From: Candidatus Kaiserbacteria bacterium
GTDB taxonomy: Bacteria; Patescibacteriota; Minisyncoccia; Phycocordibacterales; UBA2100
Direction of reading: 5' to 3'
Assembly: GCA_026996985.1 (NCBI GenBank)
Contig: JALWJR010000028.1
Coordinates: forward strand, 1 to 20,202
DNA: 20,202 nt
Positions within the stretch are counted from its first letter, which is position 1; each line of letters opens with the position of its first letter. The notes beneath the pieces are model-generated. The model was not told the origin of the DNA. It saw only the letters and a program-made list of their open reading frames with translations, and did not search any database. The position numbers were made by a program, and so were the translations under genes. This document shows, piece by piece, positions 3,548 through 19,362 of the stretch.

Positions 3548-3550
3548 AAA

Positions 3551-3573
3551 AGGTGACACATTGCGTGTCACCT
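3551..3573. terminator. hairpin between convergent genes (aggtgacac / gtgtcacct, loop attgc)
   Basis: 9-bp perfect stem. The A-run on the 5' side gives a T-run for the minus-strand gene; the T-run on the plus side is weak. Confidence 0.5.
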
Positions 3574-3580
3574 GAATCTT

Positions 3581-4003
3581 TCATTCTAAAGGCATGAGGA
3601 TAATCTCTTTTCCATTTATTGGCAAGGAAATTTCTTCTCCTTCTTGGTAGGCCTCTGCAATCGCGCTTGCTTTAGGCGCTTTTTCTGATATACATATAAT
3701 CTCCACGTTGTTGCATCTCGTTTCGTATCCGATTAGTGTTACCATTAGCAAAACGCTTCCGTTTTCCACCGAGAAGAAAGAGGGTGTCTGTGCAGGGTTT
3801 GAAAACAATTGCATTAATTGCAGCTTTTGTTGTAAGTCACTTGCAATGTAGTTTGCTATTCCTATATCTTCTCTGGAGCATAACCCGGTTTGTTCACATT
3901 GCATTTGTGCACACTGATAGTATTCCATCTTATCAAGTAAGTCCTCTATAACTGCAGATATAGCGGTTTTGATAATGCCTAAAGCCTCGGTTGAGTATGG
4001 CAT
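3581..4003 (-). CDS. hypothetical protein
   Basis: 140-aa ORF ending at the convergent hairpin; no recognisable motif. Confidence 0.45.
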   Translation of the reverse strand: MPYSTEALGIIKTAISAVIEDLLDKMEYYQCAQMQCEQTGLCSREDIGIANYIASDLQQKLQLMQLFSNPAQTPSFFSVENGSVLLMVTLIGYETRCNNVEIICISEKAPKASAIAEAYQEGEEISLPINGKEIILMPLE

Positions 4004-4136: not shown

Positions 4137-4160
4137 TATATCCGCCCATAGCTCAGCTGG
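4137..4160 (+). repeat. exact copy of 5 leader nt plus the first 19 nt of tRNA-Lys (tatatccgcccatagctcagctgg)
   Basis: Identical 24-mer recurs at 4230..4253, where it starts the real tRNA-Lys. Confidence 0.85.
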
Positions 4161-4229
4161 CCCAGCACCAAATTGGTGCCGGACATGTGCCGCAACAGGC
4201 TATAGGTGCGTGTAGATTTACGAATCGTT
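4161..4229 (+). repeat. 69-nt spacer with palindrome gcaccaaattggtgc and motif cggacatg; weak similarity to the Z modules
   Basis: Shares gcacca, cggacatg and ccgca with 11014..11083. Assignment to the Z family is tentative. Confidence 0.35.
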
Positions 4230-4234
4230 TATAT

Positions 4235-4307
4235 CCGCCCATAGCTCAGCTGGTAGAGCAGCGGGCTTTTAACCCGTGTGTCCCAGGTTCGAGTCCTGGT
4301 GGGCGGA
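4235..4307 (+). tRNA. tRNA-Lys (anticodon TTT)
   Basis: Hand-folded cloverleaf. Acceptor CCGCCCA/TGGGCGG, D arm GCTC..GAGC, anticodon stem GCGGG/CCCGT, loop CTTTTAA, T arm CCAGG TTCGAGT CCTGG. No encoded CCA. Confidence 0.9.
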
Positions 4308-4584
4308 CACGGAACAAAGTGGAGTGGCCGAACACAGCAGAGCAAACCAAGCCGTTATTGTAACTAACAGCTTGGCAAGTTGCTTTGCTTCTATTTTGGT
4401 GAGAAAGTTTACCCAGCCCATTTTTCACTGCCGGCTCTATTACCACGAAAGAGAAATTGCGCTCAATTACTAAACAGGTGCAACAGAGAGTATATTTAAA
4501 AGTGGTGGGGGCTGGTAGGCAACAAACAATACAATGGTTCGCACTCATTCAATTCAGTGAAGAGTGGGACAGAGTGAATTTATG

Positions 4585-8139: not shown

Positions 8140-9213
8140 ATGCAAAAGCCTGCAATTTCAAAAATATGGAGACTGTTTCCTCCAATTGAGTTTTTGTATA
8201 TGCCAACCGGGGCGATTGATTTTTCAAGTTCCTCTATAAAATACATGGAAGCCAAACTTTCAGCCGAAGGTTACATACCTTTCAATAAACAAAAAATAGA
8301 TATAGACACCGGAGTTATAATAGACGGAGCTGTTGCCGATGAAGAGGCTTTGATTGAATATCTTTCACAGTTAAAAACAAAAAGAAAATTTGTCTCAATA
8401 AGTATTCCCGGCGAGAGGGCTTTTTTGTTTACCGTTCCGGTTAAACATGCGGATGAGTCAATTGAAGATTTGGTCAATTTTTCGCTTGATGAGAATGTTC
8501 CGCTGGATTCCAGTTTGACAATAGCGGATTATGAATTGATTCAAAGAGGTGGCAAAACTTTTGTATCGGTTGTTGCTTATGAAGATGAAGTTATTCAGTC
8601 ATATATTCGTCCTCTCTCTTACGCCGGTTTTGAAGTTGTGCGGGTTGAGCCCGAATCATTTGCCATTGCTCGCTCTGTTGCGCCGAATAAAGAGGGCACT
8701 TTTATGATAATTGATATAGGGGCAAACAGAACAAACATAATAGTTTCAGTCGGTAGCGTGCCGGTTTTTTCAGCAAATGTAAATTTTGGCATGAGAGAGA
8801 TAACAGAAAAAATCATGAACGCTTACAATTGCTCTTTGGAAGAAGCCTACGACATTCAAAACCATGTGGGAATTCAAACCGACAATAAAACTTTAAAAAG
8901 AGATATTAAAATTCACATTAAAGAGATGGTTCAAGAAATATCCAAACACTACAATTTCTGGGACTCACGGAGAGACAAAAACGGTAATCGCATTGAAAGA
9001 ATTGAAAATGTGTTTTTAAGTGGGGGCGGGGGAGCTCTTTTGGGTCTTAAAGAAGAAATATCAAGTAAGTTGCATGTTTATGTGGAGCATGCAAACGTTT
9101 GGCAACACTTATTTGATTTGAATAAAAGAGTTCCAAAAATAAGTCGCACCGCTTCTTTGCAGTATGCCGCCACCGCCGGGCTTTTAGTAGCTGATATAAA
9201 TTCTTGCTTATGA
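8140..9213 (+). CDS. pilM: type IV pilus assembly protein PilM (actin-like ATPase fold)
   Basis: GAIDFSSSSIKY, IDIGANRTNI and VFLSGGGGALLGL phosphate-binding-like motifs. Followed by pilN/pilO-like genes. ATG 8140 sits 6 nt after TGGTATAAT. Confidence 0.75.
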   Translation: MQKPAISKIWRLFPPIEFLYMPTGAIDFSSSSIKYMEAKLSAEGYIPFNKQKIDIDTGVIIDGAVADEEALIEYLSQLKTKRKFVSISIPGERAFLFTVPVKHADESIEDLVNFSLDENVPLDSSLTIADYELIQRGGKTFVSVVAYEDEVIQSYIRPLSYAGFEVVRVEPESFAIARSVAPNKEGTFMIIDIGANRTNIIVSVGSVPVFSANVNFGMREITEKIMNAYNCSLEEAYDIQNHVGIQTDNKTLKRDIKIHIKEMVQEISKHYNFWDSRRDKNGNRIERIENVFLSGGGGALLGLKEEISSKLHVYVEHANVWQHLFDLNKRVPKISRTASLQYAATAGLLVADINSCL

Positions 9214-9767
9214 ATTTACTTCCCGATCGGCTAAAAATTTTGCAAAAATGGAGAGTGCGTTTAAGGGCTATTTTGACAGCGCTTGTGCTTGTCAATTTTG
9301 TTCTGCTAACCGCTTTTTTTGTCACCGTACCCATGTTTTTTTGGGCAAACTTGAAAATAAAAGAGTTTAAAAATGAATTGACTCAAACCAAATCAAATAT
9401 AGACATTTCCAAATACAGGGAAGATCTAAAACATATTAAAGATATGATTTCAAAAATTGAGTCAATAGATAAGATAAGAGATGACGCTTTGGTGGATGAT
9501 ATTTTTGTCTTATCTGAATCTGCATTTTTAAATGGGGGGATAAACATCACTTCTTTTAAAAGTTCTTTATCAAAAGACGGAAAGGAGGTAAATATCACCA
9601 TATCTGCAACAGCGAAAAACAGGGACTACATCTCAATGTGGCAGAAAGCAATTAAAAAAACCGGCAGGTTTAAAGAAATTTCTTTACCGATCTCTTCGCT
9701 TGCTCAAAAAGAAAACATTTCATTTGTGCTAAAATTAAAAAGAGACAAATATGATAAGAAGAATTAA
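9210..9767 (+). CDS. pilN: PilN-like pilus assembly protein
   Basis: MNLLPDRLK start, single TM, coiled-coil region. ATGA overlap with the pilM stop. Confidence 0.6.
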   Translation: MNLLPDRLKILQKWRVRLRAILTALVLVNFVLLTAFFVTVPMFFWANLKIKEFKNELTQTKSNIDISKYREDLKHIKDMISKIESIDKIRDDALVDDIFVLSESAFLNGGINITSFKSSLSKDGKEVNITISATAKNRDYISMWQKAIKKTGRFKEISLPISSLAQKENISFVLKLKRDKYDKKN

Positions 9768-10257
9768 AACACATATTTTTTTGCTTTTGTTCTTTACCTT
9801 GACTTTGGCCTCTTTCTTTAGTTTATGGTGGTGGATGAGAGGTGAGTTTAAAAGTAAAAAAACGGAACTTTCTTCAATACAAAAAGAAGTTGTTCAATTA
9901 AAGTTTAGGGAGCTTTATGCCAAATCGTTTGACTCTTTGTTAAATGAAATAAGCGAGCAAGAACAAGAGTTACTTGATTTGTTCGTTTCAGAAGATGATA
10001 TACCGACTGTTTTGGAGAATCTTGAGCAAAATGATTTTTTAAAAAGAACCAATATGAAGATAAGCTCCCTGAAGCCCAATAATGAAAATATCATCATAAA
10101 GATTAAAGGTACCGGCTCGTTTGTGGCCACGGTCAAGGCGCTGGACTATTTGGCTAATATTCCGAAAGCCGCTTTTCTAAAATCATTTAATTTAACTTAT
10201 CAAGACAATGCAGCTTTGTGGAAATATGATGCGGAAGTTGTTTTATTAAAAAAATAG
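9751..10257 (+). CDS. pilO: PilO-like pilus assembly protein
   Basis: N-terminal TM, coiled coil and small C-terminal domain. Overlaps the end of pilN. Called from position and architecture only. Confidence 0.5.
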   Translation: MIRRIKTHIFLLLFFTLTLASFFSLWWWMRGEFKSKKTELSSIQKEVVQLKFRELYAKSFDSLLNEISEQEQELLDLFVSEDDIPTVLENLEQNDFLKRTNMKISSLKPNNENIIIKIKGTGSFVATVKALDYLANIPKAAFLKSFNLTYQDNAALWKYDAEVVLLKK

Positions 10258-10262
10258 AACTT

Positions 10263-10622
10263 ATGCAAAACCAGACACAAATTAAAACACCTTTGTATTT
10301 CCTTAAAAAAGCCGCAAATTTCATAAAATTTAAATGGAAACAATTTAAGGAAGGAATTTCTTGTGCTACGTTTTTGATGAAGATCTGGATTGTTGCTGTT
10401 TTATTGTGGATTGTCGGTTTGTTTGTTGTCACTTTTATCTCAGGTGTTTATTCTTTTGATAATTTACTGTCAAATTTTACCGTACCGTCAATTGAATCTG
10501 TACAAAAACAACAGCTGGAAAGCTTGCTTGAATATTTCAACATGAGAAAAACCGGTAAATCTTTACACACCAATTACGAGGAACTGATAGATCCGGCTTT
10601 TATTTTCATTCCCGAGAAGTAA
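10263..10622 (+). CDS. hypothetical single-TM protein, last gene of the pil cluster
   Basis: 119-aa ORF with TM IWIVAVLLWIVGLFVVTFISGV, 5 nt after the pilO stop. Confidence 0.45.
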   Translation: MQNQTQIKTPLYFLKKAANFIKFKWKQFKEGISCATFLMKIWIVAVLLWIVGLFVVTFISGVYSFDNLLSNFTVPSIESVQKQQLESLLEYFNMRKTGKSLHTNYEELIDPAFIFIPEK

Positions 10623-10660
10623 TGGACAATAGCGCAATTTTGCATTATTATGAGCCCACT

Positions 10661-10732
10661 GTCCCCGTAGTTTAATGGATAAAACAGGTGGCTTCTACCC
10701 ACCCGATGGGGGTTCGAGTCCTCCCGGGGACA
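10661..10732 (+). tRNA. tRNA-Arg (anticodon TCT)
   Basis: Acceptor GTCCCCG/CGGGGAC, anticodon stem GGTGG/CCACC, loop CTTCTAC, T arm GGGGG TTCGAGT CCTCC. Confidence 0.9.
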
Positions 10733-10938
10733 CAAAACAAGAAGCGCAAAGCGAACGCTTTGCGCGACTATGTTTTGTTAAACCCGGGAGGATCTCGAAA
10801 AAAGGCGCGCGCGAAGCCCACAAAGACACGGGTGTGTCTTTGTGGAGCGTGCCGTCGGGGCAGCGGGCACTTAGCGCTTTTGCCGAGTGAAAGGAGGCAA
10901 AAAGCTTAGTGCCGGCGCCGAGTCCTCCCGGGGACACA
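10733..10938 (+). other. tRNA-3'-end-capped structured insertion, Arg copy: trailer hairpin, guide-like strand, GGATCTCGAAA core, two hairpins, exact tRNA 3'-end copy
   Basis: Trailer hairpin 10733..10777. cccgggagga (10783..10792) is complementary to tcctcccggg. Hairpins 10818..10845 and 10866..10913. The 20-mer cgagtcctcccggggacaca occurs at 10715..10734 and 10919..10938. Confidence 0.6.
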
Positions 10939-10940
10939 TA

Positions 10941-11013
10941 GAATATCAAATCCTCAAAGCAACGCTTTGGGGATTTTTGATATTCTTGGCACCGGGAGGA
11001 CCTCGAAAAGAGG
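10941..11013 (+). repeat. second trailer hairpin plus a second guide-like strand and core (accgggaggacctcgaaaagagg)
   Basis: Hairpin gaatatcaaa...tttgatattc at 10941..10985. Core at 10991..11013 repeats the layout of 10783..10808. Confidence 0.6.
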
Positions 11014-11083
11014 CGCCCCGCACCATGCACGCATGATGCGGACATGCCCGCACCATACGTACCAATTCGTATACATAATAAAA
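11014..11083 (+). repeat. Z module: palindromic hairpin ccgcaccatgcacgcatgatgcgg flanked by two gcccgcaccat-like motifs, plus a 33-nt tail
   Basis: Near-identical first part at 19317..19350. tgcccgcaccatac also occurs at 13530..13543. The tail is the exact reverse complement of 13596..13628. Confidence 0.6.
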
Positions 11084-11135
11084 GATACTAATTGATGTTT
11101 GACCAAACTCGCACAAGCAACTAAAATATACCGTT

Positions 11136-12095
11136 ATGTCCATGTTGATTTTAATACTTGCTTTGTTGATATCTTTTTTTGTTATTATCAAATCGGCAGA
11201 TTATTTCGTAGACGGCGCAGCATCTTTGGCTAAACGATTAAATGTTCCCACGTTTGTAATCGGCGTATCTGTAATAGCTGTGGGAACATCGGCCCCGGAG
11301 CTTTTTGTAAACGCTACGGCGGCATTTTCCGGAGCAACATCTTTATCCATAGGTAATGTTTTGGGTAGCAATTTGATAAATATACTTTTAGGCTTGGGAG
11401 TGGCGTCAATATTTAGGCCACTCTCGGTTCATTCGCGCACTGTGTGGAAAGAGTTGCCTTTTATGCTTCTTTCCTCTGTGGTTTTGTTTTTGATGGGAGC
11501 GGGATATTTTTTTGGGCCATATGGAGACAATGTTATATCTCGCGCGGATGCTCTGATACTTCTTTCGTTTTTTGTAATTTTTATGGTTTACGCTTTTGGT
11601 ATAAACACAGATCAAGATGAGCATACAAAAATACGGTCTTTTTCAATGGTAAAATCGGTTGCGTTAACTTTCATGGGAATTGCGGGTCTTATAGTTTTTA
11701 GCAAGATACTGGTTTGGAGTGCCACCACCTTGTCTTCAATTTTGGGAATATCTCAAAACCTGATAGGGCTTACCGTGGTTGCCGTAGGTACATCTTTACC
11801 GGAGATAGTAACAGCTGTTTCTGCGGTAAGAAAAGGTTTGGTTGATTTGGTTGTAGGTGGTATGGTAGGTTCCAACATCTTTAACATTTTTCTTATTTTG
11901 TCTGTTACAGCCCTTATTCATCCGATAAAATTTAGCAATGACAATATAGTTGACACTTTTACTTTAACTGCGATATCAACAATTCTGTTTATGATAATGT
12001 TTGTCGGCAAAAAACACACCCTTCAGAGGTCTCAAGGTATAGCTTTTGTTGCATTGTATATCTTCTATATCATTTTTGCCATCTTAAGAGGGTAG
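11136..12095 (+). CDS. Ca2+/Na+ antiporter, CaCA family (YrbG-like)
   Basis: About 10 TM segments with two alpha-repeat signatures (GTSAPELF and GTSLPEIV). Confidence 0.8.
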   Translation: MSMLILILALLISFFVIIKSADYFVDGAASLAKRLNVPTFVIGVSVIAVGTSAPELFVNATAAFSGATSLSIGNVLGSNLINILLGLGVASIFRPLSVHSRTVWKELPFMLLSSVVLFLMGAGYFFGPYGDNVISRADALILLSFFVIFMVYAFGINTDQDEHTKIRSFSMVKSVALTFMGIAGLIVFSKILVWSATTLSSILGISQNLIGLTVVAVGTSLPEIVTAVSAVRKGLVDLVVGGMVGSNIFNIFLILSVTALIHPIKFSNDNIVDTFTLTAISTILFMIMFVGKKHTLQRSQGIAFVALYIFYIIFAILRG

Positions 12096-12164
12096 TTTGC
12101 AGATAATATAAAAATACTTATACTCAAACAAGGAACATCACAACCTAAATCAAAGGAGGAAAAA

Positions 12165-13433
12165 ATGCACACCGTTAACTTGAGGCGAGTTGTTGTCACC
12201 GGTATGGGCGCGGTCACACCTTTGGGCAACTCTTCGGAGGAGATTGTCGCTAACTTGCGCGCACAGAAAAGCGGTGTTGTTTTCTCGGAAGACTATGCTC
12301 GCGCCGGCTTTAAAAGCCAAGTGTGGGCTCCTGTTGATGAGAAACCTTTGCGTTATGAAGTTGGAAGGAGGCGCCTGCGTTTTGCTGGGATTGGCAAACA
12401 GCTCCTTTTGGGGCTTGCAGCTTTTGACAGAGCCGTTTGTGATGCCAACCTGGCTCGTGAGAAGATTGCAGAGCGTCCGGATATTGCACTTGTTGCCGCT
12501 CAAGGAGGTCCCTCAACGCAAGACCAATGTCGCGCGTGGGATATTTTAAACGAACAAGGAAGCCCTAAAAAGATAGGCCCGTTTTCCGTGGTTCCCACAA
12601 TGAACTCCGGACTCTCGGCTTTGATCGCGGTGGACTATAACCTGAATGGCGCATCTTTTGCCGTCTCATCTGCTTGCGCCTCTTCTGCGCACGCAATAGG
12701 TGAGGCGGCGATTATGGTTGCCACCGGACGCGCAAATATCGCATTTGCCGGTGGGGCAGAAGACGCGCACATCAGCAAAGCGATGGGTTTTGATGCAATG
12801 AGAGCGCTTTCCACCTCTTTTAATGATAAACCTAAGAGTGCATCGCGTCCATTTTCAGTTGAGCGCGATGGTTTTGTGGAAGGCGAAGGTGCCGGATTTC
12901 TCGTGCTTGAGGAGTATGCACATGCGGTCAAGCGCGGAGCGCGCATTTATGCGGAAGTTGTCGGCTATGGTGCAACATCCGATGGGTACTCCATGGTAGA
13001 GCCCTCTGGCGAAGGTGCAATACGCGCCATGGTTCAGGCACTTACCACTTTGGGTGGTATACCTGTCCGTGGCGAGCCGCTTGAGGTTGACTACCTCAAC
13101 GCGCATGGCACCGGCACACCGAAAGGTGACCTAAAAGAGGCTGAAGCGGTGGCTCGCACTTTCGGTTTTGAAGTGCCTCTTATCTCATCAACCAAATCTC
13201 TCACCGGTCACGCGCTTGGTGCGGCTGGGGCCTGTGAGGTTATCTACACTTTGCTCATGTTGCACCATGGTTTTGTAGCCGGAACAGCAAATTTGAATCC
13301 GGATCCCGCTTTACCGGAGGTGGTGCAAAAAAGGCTTATATTTGAAAGCCATGATGCCAAATTGCGCACCGTTATGTCAAATTCGTTCGGCTTCGGTGGC
13401 GCCAATGCCTCGCTCGTTTTTGCAAGCCTGTAA
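12165..13433 (+). CDS. fabB: beta-ketoacyl-ACP synthase, KAS I (FabB)-like
   Basis: Cys-His-His triad contexts SSACASSAH, NAHGTGTP and TGHALGAAG. Long recalled matches to E. coli FabB (RIYAEVVGYGATSDG, MVEPSGEGA, TVMSNSFGFGGANA). Strong SD aaggagg at 12153..12159. Confidence 0.9.
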   Translation: MHTVNLRRVVVTGMGAVTPLGNSSEEIVANLRAQKSGVVFSEDYARAGFKSQVWAPVDEKPLRYEVGRRRLRFAGIGKQLLLGLAAFDRAVCDANLAREKIAERPDIALVAAQGGPSTQDQCRAWDILNEQGSPKKIGPFSVVPTMNSGLSALIAVDYNLNGASFAVSSACASSAHAIGEAAIMVATGRANIAFAGGAEDAHISKAMGFDAMRALSTSFNDKPKSASRPFSVERDGFVEGEGAGFLVLEEYAHAVKRGARIYAEVVGYGATSDGYSMVEPSGEGAIRAMVQALTTLGGIPVRGEPLEVDYLNAHGTGTPKGDLKEAEAVARTFGFEVPLISSTKSLTGHALGAAGACEVIYTLLMLHHGFVAGTANLNPDPALPEVVQKRLIFESHDAKLRTVMSNSFGFGGANASLVFASL

Positions 13434-13440
13434 CGATACA

Positions 13441-13470
13441 CGCCCTCTCGCTAACGCGAGAGGGCGTTTT
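13441..13470 (+). terminator. rho-independent terminator after the fabB-like gene
   Basis: 11-bp GC stem cgccctctcgc/gcgagagggcg, loop taac, followed by TTTT. Confidence 0.8.
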
Positions 13471-13493
13471 GTGATAAGTTATATGTTCGTTGC

Positions 13494-13554
13494 GATGCAG
13501 ACCAACATGCATCGTGCGTGGTGTGGGCCTGCCCGCACCATACTACACTGCATC
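13494..13554 (+). repeat. Z-like palindromic element (gatgcag...ctgcatc closing stem; inner tggtgtggg/cccgcacca)
   Basis: Shares tgcccgcaccatac with 11045..11058. On the minus strand, gcccacacca copies the tRNA-Val 3' end. Confidence 0.5.
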
Positions 13555-13595
13555 ATTACCCACTTTCTCTACGATATCATTCACAGCGCTTTACT

Positions 13596-13628
13596 TTTTA
13601 TTATGTATACGAATTGGTACGTATGGTG
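13596..13628 (-). repeat. 33-nt tRNA-Val trailer, exact inverted copy of 11051..11083
   Basis: The reverse complement reads caccatacgtaccaattcgtatacataataaaa, identical to 11051..11083. Confidence 0.9.
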
Positions 13629-13702
13629 TGGGCGATGTTGGGCTCGAACCAACGACCTTCCGCTTGTAAGGCGGACGCTCTAGCCAACTGAGCTAATCGC
13701 CC
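13629..13702 (-). tRNA. tRNA-Val (anticodon TAC)
   Basis: Acceptor GGGCGAT/ATCGCCC, D arm GCTC..GAGC, anticodon stem TCCGC/GCGGA, loop CTTACAA, T arm GTTGG TTCGAGC CCAAC. Confidence 0.9.
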
Positions 13703-13744
13703 GTGCATTAAATATATCAAAAGCAAAACTCCTGTCAACAAATA

Positions 13745-13880
13745 ACCCCCTCGGGAGGCTAAGCCTGAGTCCGAGGGGGAGCAAATCTCTGGTCGGGGCT
13801 GTCGCAATTTCGCGACCACCCCCGCCCCGTGCTGGGGGATCAGGGGAGGGTGCGGGAGTGCCCAATGGGGAGCCCCGTTG
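13745..13880. other. unassigned GC-rich structured intergenic block
   Basis: Hairpin ccccctcgg...ccgaggggg at 13746..13779 contains a gagtcc T-loop-like remnant. cggggct (13794..13800) pairs with agccccg (13871..13877). G-tracts lie between them. Confidence 0.35.
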
Positions 13881-13915
13881 AAGGAACTGAATTTATATTA
13901 GTAATCTTTTTTTCT

Positions 13916-13943
13916 TTGTCAAGAGTTTTAAATTTGTTATCAT
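13916..13943 (+). promoter_or_regulatory. putative promoter of uppS (ttgtca, 16-nt spacer, tatcat), 7 nt before the ATG
   Basis: Hexamer match and spacing. No SD between the -10 box and the start codon. Confidence 0.35.
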
Positions 13944-13950
13944 TGTCAGG

Positions 13951-14622
13951 ATGGTAAATTGCGTTGGAATAATTTTAGATGGAAACAGACGTTGGGCAAA
14001 AGAGAAAGGGTTGAGTACATTTGAAGGGCATAAAAAAGGGTTGCATGATGCGCTACTTCCCGTAGTTTTGCATGCCGGCGAGAAGGTGCCTCACTTGGTG
14101 GTTTACGCTTTCTCAACCGAGAATTGGAACAGAAGTGAGGAAGAGGTAACTTACTTGATGGACTTATTTAAACTTTTCTTTAAAAAATATGTAAACAGAC
14201 TCTCCGGAGAAAATATAAAAATAAGAGTAATAGGACAAAAGAGTCGTTTTTCTCCCGAGATACAAAAACTGATACAAGAGGCGGAAGAGAAGACAAAAAA
14301 CAACACAAAAATGACATTTTGGGTGGCGCTTTCATACGGTGGCAGAGCAGAGATTTTAGAAGCGATTGAAAAAGTCTGCTCATCCGGGGCGCATGCTAAG
14401 ACCGAAGAAGATTTTAAAAAATTTCTCTGGACAGCCGAGATGCCGGATCCGGATATTGTGATAAGAACCGGAGGAGAGAAAAGGTTGTCAAATTTTTTGC
14501 TCTGGAGTATTGCGTACAGCGAACTTTTCTTTTTGGACAAATACTGGCCCGACTTTACAGAGCAAGATTTTGACGATATTTTAAAACAATATGAAACCAG
14601 ACAAAGAAGACGTGGACGTTGA
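13951..14622 (+). CDS. uppS: isoprenyl transferase / undecaprenyl diphosphate synthase
   Basis: GIILDGNRRWA, ENWNR and RTGGEKRLSNFLLWS signature motifs. Confidence 0.9.
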   Translation: MVNCVGIILDGNRRWAKEKGLSTFEGHKKGLHDALLPVVLHAGEKVPHLVVYAFSTENWNRSEEEVTYLMDLFKLFFKKYVNRLSGENIKIRVIGQKSRFSPEIQKLIQEAEEKTKNNTKMTFWVALSYGGRAEILEAIEKVCSSGAHAKTEEDFKKFLWTAEMPDPDIVIRTGGEKRLSNFLLWSIAYSELFFLDKYWPDFTEQDFDDILKQYETRQRRRGR

Positions 14623-15367
14623 AATAATTAAAGAAGAAAAGGATTTTTTAATTTTGAACAAACCTTCCGGTATATCGGTTCATCCGGACGGCAAAACTCA
14701 AGAATACACCCTTGCCCATTGGATAGTCGATAACTACCCTCAACTAAAAGAAGTTGGAGAGCCATGGATAACCCCGAAAGGTGAAAGAATAGAGCGCCCC
14801 GGTATTGTCCACAGACTTGATAAAGAGACCAGCGGAATCTTGGTTATTGCCAAAACATCTGAGATGTTTTTTCGCTTGAAGGAGCAGTTTCAAAACAGGC
14901 AAGTTAAAAAAACCTATAAAGCTTTTGTATACGGCACCTTTAAAGAGGATTTTTTTCAAATTGACAAACCGATAGGCAGAAGCCCGAAAGACTTCAGGCG
15001 GTTTTCGGCGCAACCGGGCGCGCGTGGTAAAAAAAGAAATGCGCAAACCTCGGTTAGAGTAATTGAGCAAATCGGCAAAGGAGCAGACGGGTTTGCTTTT
15101 GTTAATTTATACCCCAAAACCGGAAGAACACACCAGTTGAGGGTGCATCTGAAAGCGGTACATCACCCGATTGTGTGTGATAAACTGTATGCCCCCAAAA
15201 GAGAATGTTTCTTTGGTTTTGAACGTTTAGCTCTGCACGCATTTTCTTTGAAGTTTACCGATTTGGCAGGCAAGGAAGTGTATTTTGAAAGCCGACTACC
15301 TTCAGATTTTCAAAATGCGCTTAAAAATTTTAAACATAATGGACCTTTACAAGGTCAAACCTTGTAA
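14591..15367 (+). CDS. RluA-family pseudouridine synthase, no S4 domain
   Basis: FLILNKPSGISVH and HRLDKETSGILVIAKT (catalytic Asp motif), RTHQLRVH. Overlaps the end of uppS by 32 nt. Confidence 0.85.
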   Translation: MKPDKEDVDVEIIKEEKDFLILNKPSGISVHPDGKTQEYTLAHWIVDNYPQLKEVGEPWITPKGERIERPGIVHRLDKETSGILVIAKTSEMFFRLKEQFQNRQVKKTYKAFVYGTFKEDFFQIDKPIGRSPKDFRRFSAQPGARGKKRNAQTSVRVIEQIGKGADGFAFVNLYPKTGRTHQLRVHLKAVHHPIVCDKLYAPKRECFFGFERLALHAFSLKFTDLAGKEVYFESRLPSDFQNALKNFKHNGPLQGQTL

Positions 15368-15436
15368 TATTGCGAAGATTTTATCAGAGAAAAATTGTTT
15401 TGCATTTTTTAAATCTTATGCTAAAGTGTTGCCACT

Positions 15437-15997
15437 ATGAGTATACAAATAAGTCCGGTAGATATGAAAGAGCGTGCCGAGCTTGGCATTAAAGCCGGGG
15501 ATACGGTTCGTGTATGGATAAAAATAGAAGAGAAGGGCAAAACACGCCTACAGCCGTTTGAAGGTTTGGTGATAGCCACAAAACACGGGACTGAGCCCGG
15601 TGCTACTTTTACCGTAAGAAAAGTGGCAAGCGGAGTGGGAGTGGAGAAGATTTTTCCACTTTATTCACCATCAATAGACAAGATAGAAATAACAAAACGC
15701 GCTCGCGTAAGGAAGAGTAAACTTTACTTTATACGTGAAAAAGTTGCCAAGGAGTTGCGTCGTATATTGCGTAAAACCACTGTTGTATCAATAGCAACAA
15801 AAGGCGCAGCCGAACTTGAAGAAGAGAGAAAAAGAGCGGAAGAGGAGGCAAGAAAAAGAGAAGAAGAGCAAAAAGCTCGGGAAGAAGCGGAAAAACAGTC
15901 TCAGGAAGCAGAAAACTCCCAAAATGAAGAGCAAACTCAACCTGAACAGACGGAAGAAACTCCATCTCAAGAAGAAAAAGAATCTGCAGAGAAGTAA
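15437..15997 (+). CDS. rplS: 50S ribosomal protein L19 with an acidic/lysine-rich C-terminal extension
   Basis: FEGLVIATKHGTEPGATFTVRKVASGVGVEKIFPLYSPSIDKIEI core. A tail of roughly 65 aa is rich in E, K and Q. Confidence 0.85.
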   Translation: MSIQISPVDMKERAELGIKAGDTVRVWIKIEEKGKTRLQPFEGLVIATKHGTEPGATFTVRKVASGVGVEKIFPLYSPSIDKIEITKRARVRKSKLYFIREKVAKELRRILRKTTVVSIATKGAAELEEERKRAEEEARKREEEQKAREEAEKQSQEAENSQNEEQTQPEQTEETPSQEEKESAEK

Positions 15998-16001
15998 ACA
16001 A

Positions 16002-16026
16002 AAACCCGGGAGAGTCCGGGTTTTTA
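16002..16026 (+). terminator. rho-independent terminator after rplS
   Basis: Stem cccgg/ccggg, loop gagagt, followed by TTTTT. Confidence 0.7.
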
Positions 16027-16067
16027 ATTTGAGTTTAACGAATAAATTTTATATACTAGAGCAACTT

Positions 16068-16149
16068 GCCCAGGTGGTGGAACTGGTATACACACACGGT
16101 TGAGGGCCGTGGCACTCCGTGCGTGCGGGTTCGAGTCCCGCCCTGGGCA
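16068..16149 (+). tRNA. tRNA-Leu (anticodon GAG)
   Basis: Acceptor GCCCAGG/CCTGGGC, anticodon stem CACGG/CCGTG, loop TTGAGGG, long variable arm, T arm GCGGG TTCGAGT CCCGC. Confidence 0.9.
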
Positions 16150-16343
16150 CAAGCGAAACGAAGTGGAGTGCGGTGCACAGGGAGCAGAGCAAACTGCTTT
16201 GCTCTGCGTCGGGATCTCGAAAGGCGGAGCGATGTGCGAGCAAAGCGAGCACGATGCGAGCCCGGGCAGGAGCCACTTAACGAACGAGGAGCAAAGCGAC
16301 GAAGTGAGTTTAGTGAGCTGACGCCGAGTCCCGCCCTGGGCAC
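16150..16343 (+). other. tRNA-3'-end-capped structured insertion, Leu copy (divergent)
   Basis: Trailer hairpin 16184..16207, core gggatctcgaaagg at 16211..16224, then cgcc and an exact 19-mer cgagtcccgccctgggcac at 16325..16343 (first copy 16132..16150). Confidence 0.55.
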
Positions 16344-16671
16344 TAGGTGTCGCTATATCAAGCCCTACAAAATGTAGGGCTTGATGGGAATATGGTTTAA
16401 ATATATTAAAGAGTTGAGCAGTTCAGATACAATATCAAGATATTGTTATTATTAGTAATTCACGCACGAAACCATATTCCCATTTAGCGACATCTAGTGC
16501 CAGGGCACCAATGCCCCTGCAACAGATTTTGTTGTGTAATCTAGTGTTGCAATTTGATATTAGAGTGGTCAATCTTCAAGCAAAAAAGTATAATGTTTAT
16601 ATGTAAAAACCTTAAAATTTTAAACTGAAATTTTAAGGAAACAAAATCTGTTGTCAGGGGCGCCCTGGGCA
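16341..16671 (+). other. AT-rich nested-hairpin element ending in a third partial tRNA-Leu 3'-end copy (cgccctgggca)
   Basis: Long-range pairs 16341..16355/16485..16499 (with one G-T), 16386..16397/16470..16481 and 16514..16533/16640..16660. Local hairpin 16357..16385. Partial copy at 16661..16671. Confidence 0.5.
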
Positions 16672-16686
16672 TAAAAAATTGAAGAT

Positions 16687-16947
16687 ATGTTTAGTTATGT
16701 TTATATTTTGCAATCTAAGAAAGATGGTTCCACATACACAGGAAGTACAACAGATTTGAAAAGAAGAATAAAAGAGCATAATGATGGTAAAGTAAAATCT
16801 ACGAGATCAAAACGTCCTTGGAAGTTAGTGTATTATGAAGCTTATCTTTTAGAAGATACTGCCAGAAAACGTGAAAAATCAATAAAAACACATGGTAATA
16901 TAAAGAGGCAATTATTTGATAGAATCTTTAAAAATTTATCTTCATAA
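16687..16947 (+). CDS. small stand-alone GIY-YIG nuclease-domain protein (YhbQ/UPF0213-like)
   Basis: YVYILQS...YTGSTTDLKRRIKEHN...WKLVYYE...AR.RE..IK matches the GIY-YIG core. Confidence 0.8.
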   Translation: MFSYVYILQSKKDGSTYTGSTTDLKRRIKEHNDGKVKSTRSKRPWKLVYYEAYLLEDTARKREKSIKTHGNIKRQLFDRIFKNLSS

Positions 16948-17054
16948 AACTAATCATTAAATAAAAAACACAAAATCAAATCAGAAATAAAAAATGTAAC
17001 ACTCAAAATATAATAAAAGTGCGTATTTAATACAGATTTCTGGCAGGTACGTAC

Positions 17055-17082
17055 TTGACAAAATACTTTTTTATTTTATTGT
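17055..17082 (+). promoter_or_regulatory. putative promoter (ttgaca, 16-nt spacer, tattgt) for the orphan ORF
   Basis: Perfect -35 hexamer and spacing. Followed by the 5'-UTR hairpin cgtggctt/aagccacg at 17088..17108. Confidence 0.35.
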
Positions 17083-17138
17083 GTCTTCGTGGCTTGTGGT
17101 AAGCCACGGTTCAACTGCACCTTAAAAGGAGAAGTAAA

Positions 17139-17765
17139 ATGCAAGTTTTCCAGTTTGTCGCCGGCGAGCTGACTCTCGGTATTGATACTGACTCCTTCTC
17201 AGAAGGAAGGAGGGTGGTATTGGGTAGAAAGAAAGTGGTGGGGGTACTGAATGGCAACCCGCCACTTTTCGGCCCCGATGGGAAAATCCTTTGTGCATTT
17301 CCCATCAAGGATAAAGAATCGGGAAATCCGATGCTCGCTTACCCCAACAAGGCGAGTAAGCATACGGGTTACCTTGTCCGCGTTTTTACCGGCATGCGCG
17401 CGTATCCTGACGCGCACGGCCGTGTGTGGTTTGTCAAGAATGAAAAAAGGAGTCGCATTCTTCTCTCTGCAAAAGACACAAGAAGTATGCAGAGAAAGGA
17501 TGGGTCTCCTGCAGAAACCTCCCACACCGACTCCCTCGTACTTCTCTGGGAAGGAGATTTACTCGGGATTGTACTGCAAAACAAAGGCAATCCCAAGTAT
17601 GTGATTGTGGCTCAGGAAGACCGGCTTGACTGTCTACTCTATGACGAGTGGGTCAAGCAGGCTGAGCAAGAGGGAGTGGAGTTCACCTCTTTTGAGGATT
17701 GGGAACGGCACCGGATTGAACAGTCTGTTGCCGGGCTAAAGAAAACCCTCAAGGTGGTGAAGTGA
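17139..17765 (+). CDS. hypothetical protein (GC-rich orphan, no recognisable domain)
   Basis: 208-aa ORF with SD aaaggaga 6-7 nt upstream and its own strong terminator. Visibly GC-richer than its flanks. Confidence 0.6.
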   Translation: MQVFQFVAGELTLGIDTDSFSEGRRVVLGRKKVVGVLNGNPPLFGPDGKILCAFPIKDKESGNPMLAYPNKASKHTGYLVRVFTGMRAYPDAHGRVWFVKNEKRSRILLSAKDTRSMQRKDGSPAETSHTDSLVLLWEGDLLGIVLQNKGNPKYVIVAQEDRLDCLLYDEWVKQAEQEGVEFTSFEDWERHRIEQSVAGLKKTLKVVK

Positions 17766-17774
17766 GCTGACAGC

Positions 17775-17807
17775 ATCCCCGGCGCGCGTTGCGCGCCGGG
17801 GATTTTT
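17775..17807 (+). terminator. rho-independent terminator (13-bp stem atccccggcgcgc/gcgcgccggggat, then TTTT)
   Basis: Perfect GC-rich stem, 3-nt loop, T-run. Confidence 0.85.
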
Positions 17808-17822
17808 GTGTAGTATAAAAGC

Positions 17823-18374
17823 ATGGGTTTGTATACCGGAAAAGGGGATAGTGGCACAAGTGCTCTGTTTGAATCAAACAAAAGGTTAAGCAAAAACTCT
17901 ACCGTTTTTGATGCGCTTGGCACTCTGGACGAACTTAATTCTTATTTGGGGCTTTGCAAGGTTCAGTCAAGAGCTGACAGTTTTCGCGTTGGTAGTCGCA
18001 AAGTGTCACACATAGTACACGAGCTTCAAGATGATTTGTTTATAATTCAAGCCGAGCTTGCGGGAGCAGACAAAAGCATATCAAAGCAAAAAGTTGAAAA
18101 ATTGGAGAAAATAATAGAGCAAATAGACAGTAAACTTCCGCCAATTAACACTTTTTTTATCTCCGGTGGAACCGAACTTTCCGCCAGATTTGATTTTGCT
18201 CGCACAATAGCTCGCAGAGCTGAGAGAAAGGTGGTTGCCGTTTTTGAATCGGGGTATAAAATCTCTCCCGATACTTTGGCTTATCTAAATCGTTTTTCCA
18301 GTATTCTCTACGCCCTGGCTCGTTTTGCAAACTACCAAAGGGGAATAGATGAAGATGCGCCGGATTATAAGTAA
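17823..18374 (+). CDS. ATP:cob(I)alamin adenosyltransferase, PduO type
   Basis: YTGKGDSGTS N-terminus, DALGTLDELNSYLG, FISGG and ARTIARRAER motifs. Confidence 0.85.
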   Translation: MGLYTGKGDSGTSALFESNKRLSKNSTVFDALGTLDELNSYLGLCKVQSRADSFRVGSRKVSHIVHELQDDLFIIQAELAGADKSISKQKVEKLEKIIEQIDSKLPPINTFFISGGTELSARFDFARTIARRAERKVVAVFESGYKISPDTLAYLNRFSSILYALARFANYQRGIDEDAPDYK

Positions 18375-18392
18375 TTTTTAAACGACTTTTTC

Positions 18393-18421
18393 TGTACAAA
18401 GTGCATTTTTTGTTTTATAAT
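18393..18421 (+). promoter_or_regulatory. putative rnpB promoter (tgtaca, 17-nt spacer, tataat)
   Basis: The -10 hexamer at 18416..18421 lies about 7 nt before the P1 5' strand. Confidence 0.35.
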
Positions 18422-18444
18422 CCTACCGGTCGCATCGGATGGTC

Positions 18445-18547
18445 GCCCCCCACCACTTTTGTGCTTTAAACCTGTGGCGGTAAATAGTAAAGTGTTGACA
18501 AGCCAAATTGCAAATTAATGGTTTACGGTACAAAAGTGGTGGGGGGA
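18445..18547 (+). repeat. 103-nt extended hairpin at the P3 position (17-bp base ccccccaccacttttgt/acaaaagtggtgggggg)
   Basis: Identical to 18563..18666 except for one extra C in the second copy. Confidence 0.9.
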
Positions 18548-18562
18548 GGAAAGTCCGGACAC

Positions 18563-18666
18563 GCCCCCCCACCACTTTTGTGCTTTAAACCTGTGGCGGT
18601 AAATAGTAAAGTGTTGACAAGCCAAATTGCAAATTAATGGTTTACGGTACAAAAGTGGTGGGGGGA
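18563..18666 (+). repeat. second copy of the 103/104-nt hairpin, inserted just after the P4 5' strand
   Basis: Direct comparison with 18445..18547. Confidence 0.9.
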
Positions 18667-18958
18667 GAAAGGTAGCGGGTAACACCCGTCCGGGGCAACC
18701 CGAGAGGTGCGAACAGAGACGCTGAAAGTGGAAACACTTTCAGGGCCCTTTTGGGGTTAGCTCTTAGGGAAACCTAAGAGGTGAAACGGCTAAATCCTTA
18801 CCTGCGTGCAAGGCCGTGCCGAGCCCATACATTTAGTATAAGCTCGGAGAGCCGCAAGAGGCGACTGGTAACAGTCGTCCCAGATAAATGACCATCGCTG
18901 AGTCTTTTGGCGCAAAGATTCGGTACAGAATCCGGCTTATAGATGCGATCTGCCAGAT

Positions 18959-19032
18959 GGCGGCTGTAGCTCAGTTGGTAGAGCCCTCGGTTGTGGTCCG
19001 AGTGGTCGTGGGTTCGAGTCCCACCAGTCGCC
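18959..19032 (+). tRNA. tRNA-His (anticodon GTG) with encoded G-1
   Basis: G-1 opposite C73. Acceptor GCGGCTG/CAGTCGC, anticodon stem CTCGG/CCGAG, loop TTGTGGT, T arm GTGGG TTCGAGT CCCAC. Confidence 0.9.
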
Positions 19033-19108
19033 CAGCAATTGTTAAGCCAAAACACAAGCGTGTTTTGGTTTTTACAATTGCCGGCGAATGTGGGATCTCG
19101 AAAAGAGG
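19015..19108 (+). repeat. 94-bp direct repeat, copy 1: tRNA-His T-loop to 3' end, trailer hairpin, guide-like strand and core
   Basis: Exact 94-mer recurs at 19223..19316 (period 208). Confidence 0.95.
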
Positions 19109-19222
19109 CGCGCGCGAAGCCCGCAAAGACACAGGTGTGTCTTTGCGGAGCGCGCCGTCCGGGCAGGGGGTACTTAGTGCTTTTGCCGAGTTTAACGAGG
19201 CAAAACACTTAGTACCGGTCGC
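19109..19222 (+). other. conserved two-hairpin core of the tRNA-linked element, His copy
   Basis: Hairpins 19121..19148 and 19169..19216. By-eye alignment to 10809..10918 is close to nine-tenths identical, with compensatory changes. Confidence 0.6.
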
Positions 19223-19316
19223 CGAGTCCCACCAGTCGCCCAGCAATTGTTAAGCCAAAACACAAGCGTGTTTTGGTTTTTACAATTGCCGGCGAATGTG
19301 GGATCTCGAAAAGAGG
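19223..19316 (+). repeat. 94-bp direct repeat, copy 2
   Basis: Identical to 19015..19108. Confidence 0.95.
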
Positions 19317-19362
19317 TGCCCCACACCATGCACGCATGATGCGGGCAGGCCCGCGTAGTCGG
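19317..19362 (+). repeat. Z module, His copy (tgccccacaccatgcacgcatgatgcgggcaggcccgc...)
   Basis: Close match to 11014..11050. Confidence 0.6.

Follow-up and report, generated by a model that had tools for sequence, protein, structure and literature searches.

A 20,202-nt stretch of chromosomal DNA from a Candidatus Kaiserbacteria bacterium (GenBank assembly GCA_026996985.1, contig JALWJR010000028.1, positions 1 to 20,202, forward strand; hereafter the window) carries related structured elements behind three of its tRNA genes, namely, tRNA-Arg, tRNA-Leu, and tRNA-His. We see about an even chance that these elements are non-coding, non-autonomous integrative cassettes that occupy the 3' ends of tRNA genes and whose folded single strand is the substrate. 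An earlier note on the sequence had placed the Arg, Leu, and His copies where we find them and had recognized the folded core that they share. It had offered two origins, a tRNA-minihelix-capped small RNA (sRNA) and a non-autonomous element; the latter fits better.

The window comes from a tiny-genome bacterium of the candidate phyla radiation (CPR)/Patescibacteria type, and its nearest named relatives by ribosomal protein L19 are "Candidatus Kaiserbacteria". It contains seven tRNA genes and one RNase P RNA gene, and its protein genes include those for L19, UppS, RluA, a PilM-like protein, RuvA, RuvX, and a Na/Ca exchanger. tRNA genes were called with ARAGORN, RNA families with Rfam 15 (E ≤ 1), and protein domains with Pfam. 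The elements matched no family in Rfam 15 at this threshold, including transfer-messenger RNA (tmRNA), ribozymes, group I and II introns, and retron RNAs, in agreement with the earlier note, which had recognized no known RNA class. Literature searches for an equivalent element found none described, and on these two negative results the element appears to be undescribed. A hammerhead or other ribozyme was rejected on the absence of core motifs as well as of an Rfam match, and a retron RNA on the absence of a reverse transcriptase.

Architecture of the units and their match to the host tRNA

Read from the host tRNA, an array has the order A - x - terminator - x' - A' - core - A. Segment A is the part of the tRNA gene from T-loop position C56 to the discriminator plus 0-2 nt; it forms an 18-20 nt direct repeat that begins at the T-loop CGA, with the same boundary (C56) at all nine sites. 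A' repeats the segment from T54 to the discriminator in inverted orientation, T-loop complement included. The parts x and x' are inverted copies of the flank, and with them the inverted repeat runs past the tRNA end into the non-tRNA flank. The features of the Arg, Leu, and His units are as follows.

10661..10733, + strand: host tRNA-Arg(TCT), with segment A at 10715-10734 (C56 to the discriminator plus 1 nt); ARAGORN, Rfam, and sequence
10735..10782, + strand: x - terminator hairpin - x' of Arg unit 1, a palindromic spacer extending A/A', with a terminator-like site at 10744-10765
10783..10799, + strand: Arg A', CCCGGGAGGATCTCGAA, inverted T loop, T-stem 3' strand, and part of the acceptor 3' strand
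10800..10918, + strand: Arg core, with hairpin 1 CCCACAAAGACAC/GUGUCUUUGUGG, a GGGCAG linker, and hairpin 2 with a U-U mismatch; z = -8.2, covariation, 133 bits
10919..10938, + strand: Arg distal A, CGAGTCCTCCCGGGGACACA, 20/20 identical to 10715-10734; repeat family D4
10939..11051, + strand: Arg partial unit, with a terminator palindrome at 10948-10976, a second A' at 10990-11007, the core stub AAGAGGCGC, and "coreB" CCGCACCATGCACGCATGATGCGGACATGCCCGC
16068..16150, + strand: host tRNA-Leu(GAG), with segment A at 16132-16150
16173..16221, + strand: Leu A', split into GTGCACAGGG (16173-16182), an inserted hairpin (16184-16207), and CGGGATCTCGAA (16210-16221)
16222..16324, + strand: Leu-type core, with the U-U mismatch of hairpin 2 between UUAA/UUUA flanks; alignment, covariance model 125 bits
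16325..16343, + strand: Leu distal A, 19/19 identical to 16132-16150; repeat family D10
18960..19033, + strand: host tRNA-His, with segment A at 19015-19033
19034..19102, + strand: His unit 1, x - terminator - x' at 19034-19081 and A' GGCGAATGTGGGATCTCGAA at 19083-19102
19103..19222, + strand: His core, 88% identical to the Arg core; repeat family D1, z = -7.2, 128 bits
19223..19354, + strand: His distal region, with distal A at 19223-19241, a repeated terminator palindrome and A', and coreB at 19311-19354

The spacing between the copies of A is 204 nt for Arg, 193 nt for Leu, and 208 nt for His. Cassettes in general span approximately 190-330 nt and are mostly non-coding, and the Arg, Leu, and His units are regular in size (193-208 nt). 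The tRNA 3' end, the terminator, and the 5' strand (A') together make one long palindrome, which at the His locus is an 89-nt hairpin (-32.2 kcal/mol with DNA parameters, z = -10.4); the whole 208-nt His unit is nearly all paired (z = -11.2, DNA parameters). At both the Arg and His loci, a full unit is followed by a partial one that consists of the terminator, the 5' strand, and the different coreB. The 19-nt copy of A at the His locus sits inside a 97-nt direct repeat with 99% identity (repeat family D3). Homology across different tRNA loci is confined to the core and ends at T-loop-derived motifs, as a comparison of Arg with His shows, while A, A', x, and the terminator are all locus-specific. 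The unit ends read ...TCGAA and CGANTCC....

The 5' strand matches the tRNA gene next to it. When 11 such strands were aligned with 12 tRNA 3' ends, the own host ranked first for 10 of them, and it still did so for 9/11 after the universal T-loop part had been removed; a ranking by duplex energy was noisier, with the own host first in six of nine cases. In the minimum-free-energy fold, Arg A' pairs with 10919-10932, and its own host is top-ranked. Six genomes, with Arg, His, Leu, Gln, and Met as hosts, support the proposal that the 5' strand co-varies with the identity of the host tRNA. The Leu copy had been described as matched over cggg only; this was an underestimate, as its acceptor-side complement GTGCACAGGG (16173-16182) lies upstream of the inserted hairpin.

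The strand GGGATCTCGAAA, which the earlier note had assigned to the shared core, does not for the most part belong to the core of the element but is complementary to the T stem and T loop of the host. "GGGA(T)CTCGAA" is such a T-stem/T-loop complement because A' is an inverted copy of the segment from T54 to the discriminator. The relative L036 (labels of this kind denote the contigs compared) makes this plain, as there a host T loop of TTCAACT goes with an element that reads GGAGTTGAA ... CAACTCC; A' and A follow even this variant host T loop. Where tRNA stems hold G-U pairs, A' usually complements A and not the tRNA 5' strand. Examples are GGAGG in Arg A', where the tRNA itself has GGGGG, and an A at acceptor position 4 in His A', where the tRNA has G. 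The helix does not resemble an evolved guide or tRNA mimic: its 3' strand is a part of the target gene that has been duplicated or displaced, and its 5' strand is an inverted copy of it that extends into the flank (x/x'). The continuation of the inverted copy past the tRNA end into the flank points to an origin at the DNA level. A tRNA pseudogene with an intron in the T loop was also considered and rejected, since A' is the complement of A (Arg GGAGG versus GGGGG; His A versus G) and the adjoining loop is the T-loop complement.

Insertion signature and turnover at the tRNA sites

An exact three-anchor pattern matched within the window at exactly the Arg, Leu, and His places, with 0 matches expected. 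It was then run on one genome per species (185,579 genomes), JGI metagenomes, and IMG/VR. The genome scan gave one true further copy (L005, behind tRNA-Gln in a Patescibacteria metagenome-assembled genome), and its other five matches were chance matches in GC-rich genomes. The JGI metagenomes gave only chance matches, in GC-rich sequence with no tRNA close by, and two scans of IMG/VR gave no match to the exact pattern. The anchor GGATCTCGAAA is too strict, being partly host-derived, and the patterns miss L021, L036, and the Met variants. Further copies were obtained from syntenic contigs of relatives, which were fetched via L19 homologues. These relatives carry copies at tRNA-Leu (L012/L014 and L015/L013), at tRNA-Arg and tRNA-His (L021), and at tRNA-Arg (L036), and tRNA-Met in L022/L023 carries a more distant variant. 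A covariance model built from eight copies and run on the contigs of the window and its relatives recovered all copies; every match lies 3' of a tRNA on the same strand. The model found no copy on L020.

Comparison of relatives shows filled, empty, and exchanged sites. In L020, tRNA-Arg is directly followed by "aaatcgtt...gctatag"; in L021, that flank trails the distal A of the element. At tRNA-Leu, relatives whose flanking genes share approximately 86-89% identity with those of the window present three states: the Leu-type core, the same core type with hairpin 2 replaced, and a core of another type together with another terminator. At tRNA-Val, L012 has an empty site, the window a filled one, and L015 three small hairpin units. 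The contigs of related strains break at the element loci, as is expected for repeated DNA.

A regenerated target together with a displaced 3' fragment is the described mark of islands in tRNA genes (PMC4383910), and attB sites in the T loop are known (PMC1762012). Every site examined here has the regenerated gene and the displaced 3' fragment as a direct repeat. This signature would also be expected if the units were decayed attL/attR scars of integrase-encoding islands or prophages that once resided in these tRNA genes, given that the regenerated end with its displaced fragment is classical for such elements (PMC4383910) and the T loop is a known sublocation of integration (PMC1762012). We nevertheless hold scars of this kind to be very unlikely. 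Independent decay would not leave one structured core at Arg, His, Leu, Gln, and Met sites in several genomes, nor a regular unit size of 193-208 nt, and A' is not expected. No integrase fragment was found in or near any unit, and no unit has an open reading frame (ORF) for an integrase of its own, as judged from a scan of the window ORFs. A casposon-like or ordinary target-site duplication was rejected because it accounts for A and leaves A' unexplained.

Covariation of the core and what it implies

The Arg and His copies are 88% identical across 126 nt, and both fold into an outer helix with two hairpins (z = -8.2 for Arg and -7.2 for His). The outer helix of the Leu copy forms if GTGCACAGGG is included (z = -3.9; without it, z = -1.3). 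The three double substitutions between Arg and His that the earlier note had listed, as well as the T-T mismatch in CTTAG/CTTAG, can be read directly in the sequences. The U-U mismatch is kept even though the pairs that flank it change (CUUAG/CUUAG versus CUUAA/UUUAG).

Covariation was assessed with eight copies from five genomes against 500 shuffles, and with the pairing partners slid by 1-3 columns as a control. In the eight-copy alignment, 89.8% of the cells in helices can pair, compared with 75.2% in the shuffles, and the slid partners pair at just 29-48%. Double changes occur in 17 of the 25 pairs, a number that 0/500 shuffles reached, so the earlier claim of selection on a folded nucleic acid is borne out. 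Most of the signal comes from the closing GGC/GCC helix and hairpin 2. Among the helix cells, G-U outnumbers A-C by 12 to 3 on the tRNA-sense strand. The genomes that bear the core have L19 proteins only 65-69% identical, and the conservation of the core with compensatory changes across such distant genomes implies selection on the fold; judged from these alignments, it is the folded single strand on which selection acts.

A folded strand under selection could be an RNA. The units might be transcribed by read-through, yielding a tRNA-minihelix-capped sRNA that is cut by RNase P and 3' enzymes, or A' might act in cis in the manner of an attenuator, pairing with the 3' half of the tRNA itself or else with the copy downstream. 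The G-U pairs on the tRNA-sense strand (12 versus 3 A-C cells) suit this explanation, as do the outer helix, which equals an acceptor stem plus a T stem, the co-orientation of all copies with their tRNA, the terminator after each copy of A, and the two alternative partners that A' has for pairing. We nevertheless consider a functional RNA improbable. The genes for tRNA-Arg, tRNA-Leu, RNase P RNA, and the Na/Ca exchanger each have a promoter-like site in front of them, and none was found before any element. A terminator hairpin with a T run separates each tRNA from its A' and stands ahead of the element. Pairing and the interruption by the core have broken up the T loop, and the main determinants for RNase P and T-loop enzymes are gone. 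These features weaken the sRNA option of the earlier note; neither the own promoter nor the intact T-loop/acceptor module of a tRNA-like small RNA was found in the units. Neither CCA nor its complement is present. The x/x' inverted repeat lies in the non-tRNA flank and is needless for a tRNA mimic. Related genomes have empty sites, the cores at one tRNA have been exchanged, and Rfam has no matching family. A primer-binding site for a mature tRNA was likewise rejected, since the CCA complement is absent 5' of A'.

Alternatively, the units could be by-products of errors in replication or repair, in which fold-back template switching at terminator palindromes would duplicate the tRNA end in inverted and direct orientation, with the cores spread by gene conversion through the universal T-loop sequence and with neither dedicated machinery nor function. 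The alternation A - A' - A - A' centred on palindromic terminators looks like such a product, the Val-type units (see below) are barely more than A'-CAG-A hairpins, and the window holds two near-perfect tandem duplications, of 97 and 119 nt, one of which is inside the RNase P RNA gene. The arrest of core homology at T-loop-derived motifs would also follow. Against this stand the conservation of the approximately 115-nt core with compensatory changes across genomes of 65-69% L19 identity, the recurrence of the precise C56 boundary at nine sites, and the length of the T-loop homology, which at 5-7 nt is very short for gene conversion. Template switching with gene conversion therefore seems to us a rather unlikely source of the units.

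Proposed mobilization, known counterparts, and neighbouring repeats

What we infer beyond the fold, the insertion signature, and the site matching is a single-strand mechanism of an integrative cassette, with a circle and an enzyme. The A':A stem would be a duplex copy of the stretch of the tRNA gene that is targeted, and the Y-shaped core (two hairpins, the GGGCAG linker, and the U-U/T-T mismatch) would be the part that the enzyme recognizes. The unit might move or recombine as a circle or as nearly fully folded single-stranded DNA. Integration would leave the tRNA intact and supplied with a terminator, and the second A would then adjoin the original flank. Repeated events could build arrays at one tRNA, and deletions between the repeats could leave partial units. 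Candidate enzymes are the SLX1-like GIY-YIG nuclease encoded in the same arrays and a host recombinase.

The GIY-YIG gene belongs to the downstream part of the Leu array.

16344..16671, + strand: second Leu unit, with a differing AT-rich cargo and a flank palindrome (16344-16356 with 16486-16496); z = -6.3. Its parts are A' GTGCCAGGGC (16497-16506), an inverted repeat of 21 bp, a promoter-like site (16566-16594), and, at 16661-16671, the third tRNA-Leu end copy
16687..16947, + strand: GIY-YIG gene, UPF0213/SLX1-like, beginning 15 nt past the third tRNA-Leu end copy; Pfam, PDB 1zg2, SLX1

The encoded protein, of 86 amino acids, belongs to the UPF0213 type and matches SLX1 less well. Most of the homologues closest to it (71-79% identity) are on very short contigs. 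In the window and L015, the gene trails the last copy of the tRNA-Leu end; L012 is without the gene. In L022, L023, and L024, it begins right after tRNA-Met. Inverted repeats composed of the tRNA-Met end and flank enclose the gene, and a further copy of the tRNA-Met end follows; the next feature behind this GIY-YIG cassette in L022 and L023 is a Met-type structured unit. The co-occurrence that the earlier note had suggested is thus real in some arrays (the window, L015, and L022-L024), but the link is not an obligatory one: most units have no such gene, and none was found near the elements in L021, L036, or L005. Insertion driven by a homing endonuclease of the GIY-YIG type would call for a nuclease gene inside the inserted DNA and for cleavage of the empty site. 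We regard the gene as array cargo and a candidate mobility enzyme, nothing more. A related and fairly unlikely idea is that a mobile element builds its own targeting module, whereby the approximately 115-nt core enters the T-loop region and gains inverted and direct copies of the last 18-20 bp of the tRNA gene, so that every copy would bear a folded single-strand site that fits its host tRNA. Such an element might be mobilized by the structure-specific SLX1-like GIY-YIG nuclease and not by a classical recombinase.

Three loci with such genes were observed in other genomes. In L022 (GCA_054006635.1), positions 9085-10830 after rplB hold two tRNA-Met genes, the GIY-YIG cassette, the Met-type unit, and a further repeat family, AAAGATTCGAAGAnATTTTACCGAGCACCATTTTCCAC.... 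In L029, a more distant CPR contig, an initiator-type tRNA-Met (2095-2388) is apparently split in the anticodon loop by approximately 230 nt, possibly a group I intron; behind it come a terminator and a GIY-YIG gene. ARAGORN made no call at this tRNA. In L025 (Gottesmanbacteria, 3400-3870), a second GIY-YIG gene lies between direct repeats, GTTCTGATTTCTTCCAACCCCCGCAA and GTTCTGATTTCTTACAATCCTCGCAA, that resemble a tRNA 3' end.

Several points weigh against an integrative cassette. A simple integrase model has no need of A', and it poorly explains how A and A' are retargeted to single-copy tRNA genes without breaking them. The excess of G-U over A-C (12 versus 3 cells) is equally compatible with RNA. 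No recombinase, transposase, or HUH gene was found with Pfam in the 20-kb window or in the units, and the only candidates of a recombination type in the window are RuvA, RuvX, and the GIY-YIG protein. GIY-YIG nucleases cut DNA and do not rejoin it, UPF0213 proteins are common and housekeeping-like, and distant GIY-YIG homologues sit behind tRNA-Met without A/A' repeats. The exact pattern, too strict as it was, gave a single extra copy in 185,579 genomes and none in the JGI metagenomes or IMG/VR. A free or circular form was not seen. The sole difference between near-identical strains is the lack of one His unit in L010 (99.97% identical to the window), for which assembly collapse is possible; in L010 the tandem repeat of the RNase P RNA gene is likewise one copy short, and this joint absence fits collapse and makes the loss of the His unit ambiguous.

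The cassettes resemble the islands and prophages of tRNA genes (Islander, PMC4383910; Ms6, PMC1762012) in their insertion into the 3' part of the tRNA gene, the supply of a replacement 3' end (here with a terminator), the displaced 3' fragment at the far end, the start of identity in the T loop, and the arrays at one tRNA. By contrast, they are only approximately 200 nt long, have no integrase and usually no gene, carry A' and a conserved folded core, and place the same core at five tRNA species.

A folded stem that reproduces the target duplex is the design of the integron attC site and of the CTX-phage attP hairpin. As in attC, CTX attP(+), and other Xer-dependent integrating elements, the sequence of the cassettes is variable and the hairpin is conserved with bulges and mismatches, so that the A':A stems have the hairpin form of attC; the stem of the folded strand would reproduce a duplex recombination site, and units, some of them without an ORF, gather in arrays at one chromosomal site. 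The target of the cassettes is the end of a tRNA gene and not attI or dif, and their stem matches each individual target over 17-20 bp. Neither attC R''/R' core sites (RYYYAAC ... GTTRRRY) in the unit ends nor an IntI integrase in the 20-kb window was found.

Miniature inverted-repeat transposable elements (MITEs), REPINs (doublets of repetitive extragenic palindromes), and palindrome-associated elements are likewise short, non-coding, multi-copy, and assembly-breaking, with terminal inverted repeats, long hairpins, and presumed mobilization in trans. The inverted repeats of the cassettes differ in being site-specific copies of the target, and there is no separate short target-site duplication. 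A parent insertion sequence, a RAYT gene, or an autonomous partner was not found in the loci compared. With tRNA-like RNAs (the tmRNA domain, YrlA, and viral 3' ends) the units share an end helix made of stacked acceptor and T stems, whereas they have no intact T loop, D-loop mimic, CCA, or promoter and are matched to the neighbouring tRNA, not to a fixed identity. Taken together, the cassettes are best filed as a variant of tRNA-gene-integrating elements with an attC-like folded site, and their gene-free size of approximately 200 nt, their inverted copy of the target, and a folded core common to five tRNA species are what is unusual in them.

tRNA genes are the classic landing sites of large islands, and here they receive a gene-free, highly structured form of approximately 200 nt, which fits five tRNA species base by base. 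Should recombination act on the folded strand, this strand would be a third natural hairpin that imitates a duplex target, after attC and CTX attP, with a specificity that shifts per site. Such cassettes would help explain the genome plasticity and broken assemblies of CPR/Patescibacteria, in which mobile elements are poorly known, and could point to an unrecognized enzyme activity. If the units are RNA instead, they would form a new tRNA-linked RNA class.

The window has one further family of this kind, as well as repeats and chimeric sequences in the neighbourhood of the units.

13516..13633, - strand: Val-type family behind tRNA-Val, a hairpin GTATGGTGCGGG-CAG-GCCCACACC in which the tRNA-Val end with its flank stands once inverted and once in direct orientation

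The Val-type units contain little beyond these A'-CAG-A hairpins. A 38-nt inverted repeat (97% identity; 11046-11083 and 13596-13633) brackets the Na/Ca exchanger and ketoacyl-synthase genes, and one of its arms abuts the 3' end of tRNA-Val. In L020 and L021, tRNA-Val is oppositely oriented, and an inversion between copies of the element may account for this.

The RNase P RNA gene (18430-18955, + strand) contains a 119-nt tandem duplication with 98% identity (repeats 18446-18554 and 18565-18673). A long P3-like hairpin occurs twice, with 27-nt arms CCCCCCACCAC.../...GTGGTGGGGGG; the first copy is followed by the canonical motif GAGGAAAGTCCGGAC, and the second is inserted just behind that motif. 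Rfam aligned the gene only from 18624, with 86 bits (gathering score 100), and missed the canonical motif. A promoter-like site at 18393-18421 fits an RNA start near 18430, and L010 holds one copy of the repeat.

At tRNA-Lys, the first ~25 nt of the gene together with the upstream TATATCC are duplicated 93 nt upstream (4137-4167 versus 4230-4260). The sequence after this tRNA (4300-4400) is like the tRNA-Leu spacer (..AAGTGGAGTG..CAGAGCAAAC..TGCTTTGCT), with no core, and may be a remnant unit.

In coreB (10998-11051 and 19301-19354; L015, 1-310), the junction GAGGYGCC/CCRCACCAT joins the core stub to the Val-type hairpin sequence GCGGGCAGGCCCRC. The coreB region of Arg (repeat family D7) is 91% identical to 19301-19354, so that the junction stands behind both tRNA-Arg and tRNA-His, and it is also present in the related strain L015. 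Its presence at these places shows that a chimeric unit was copied between tRNA loci, with its 5' strand matched to each host.

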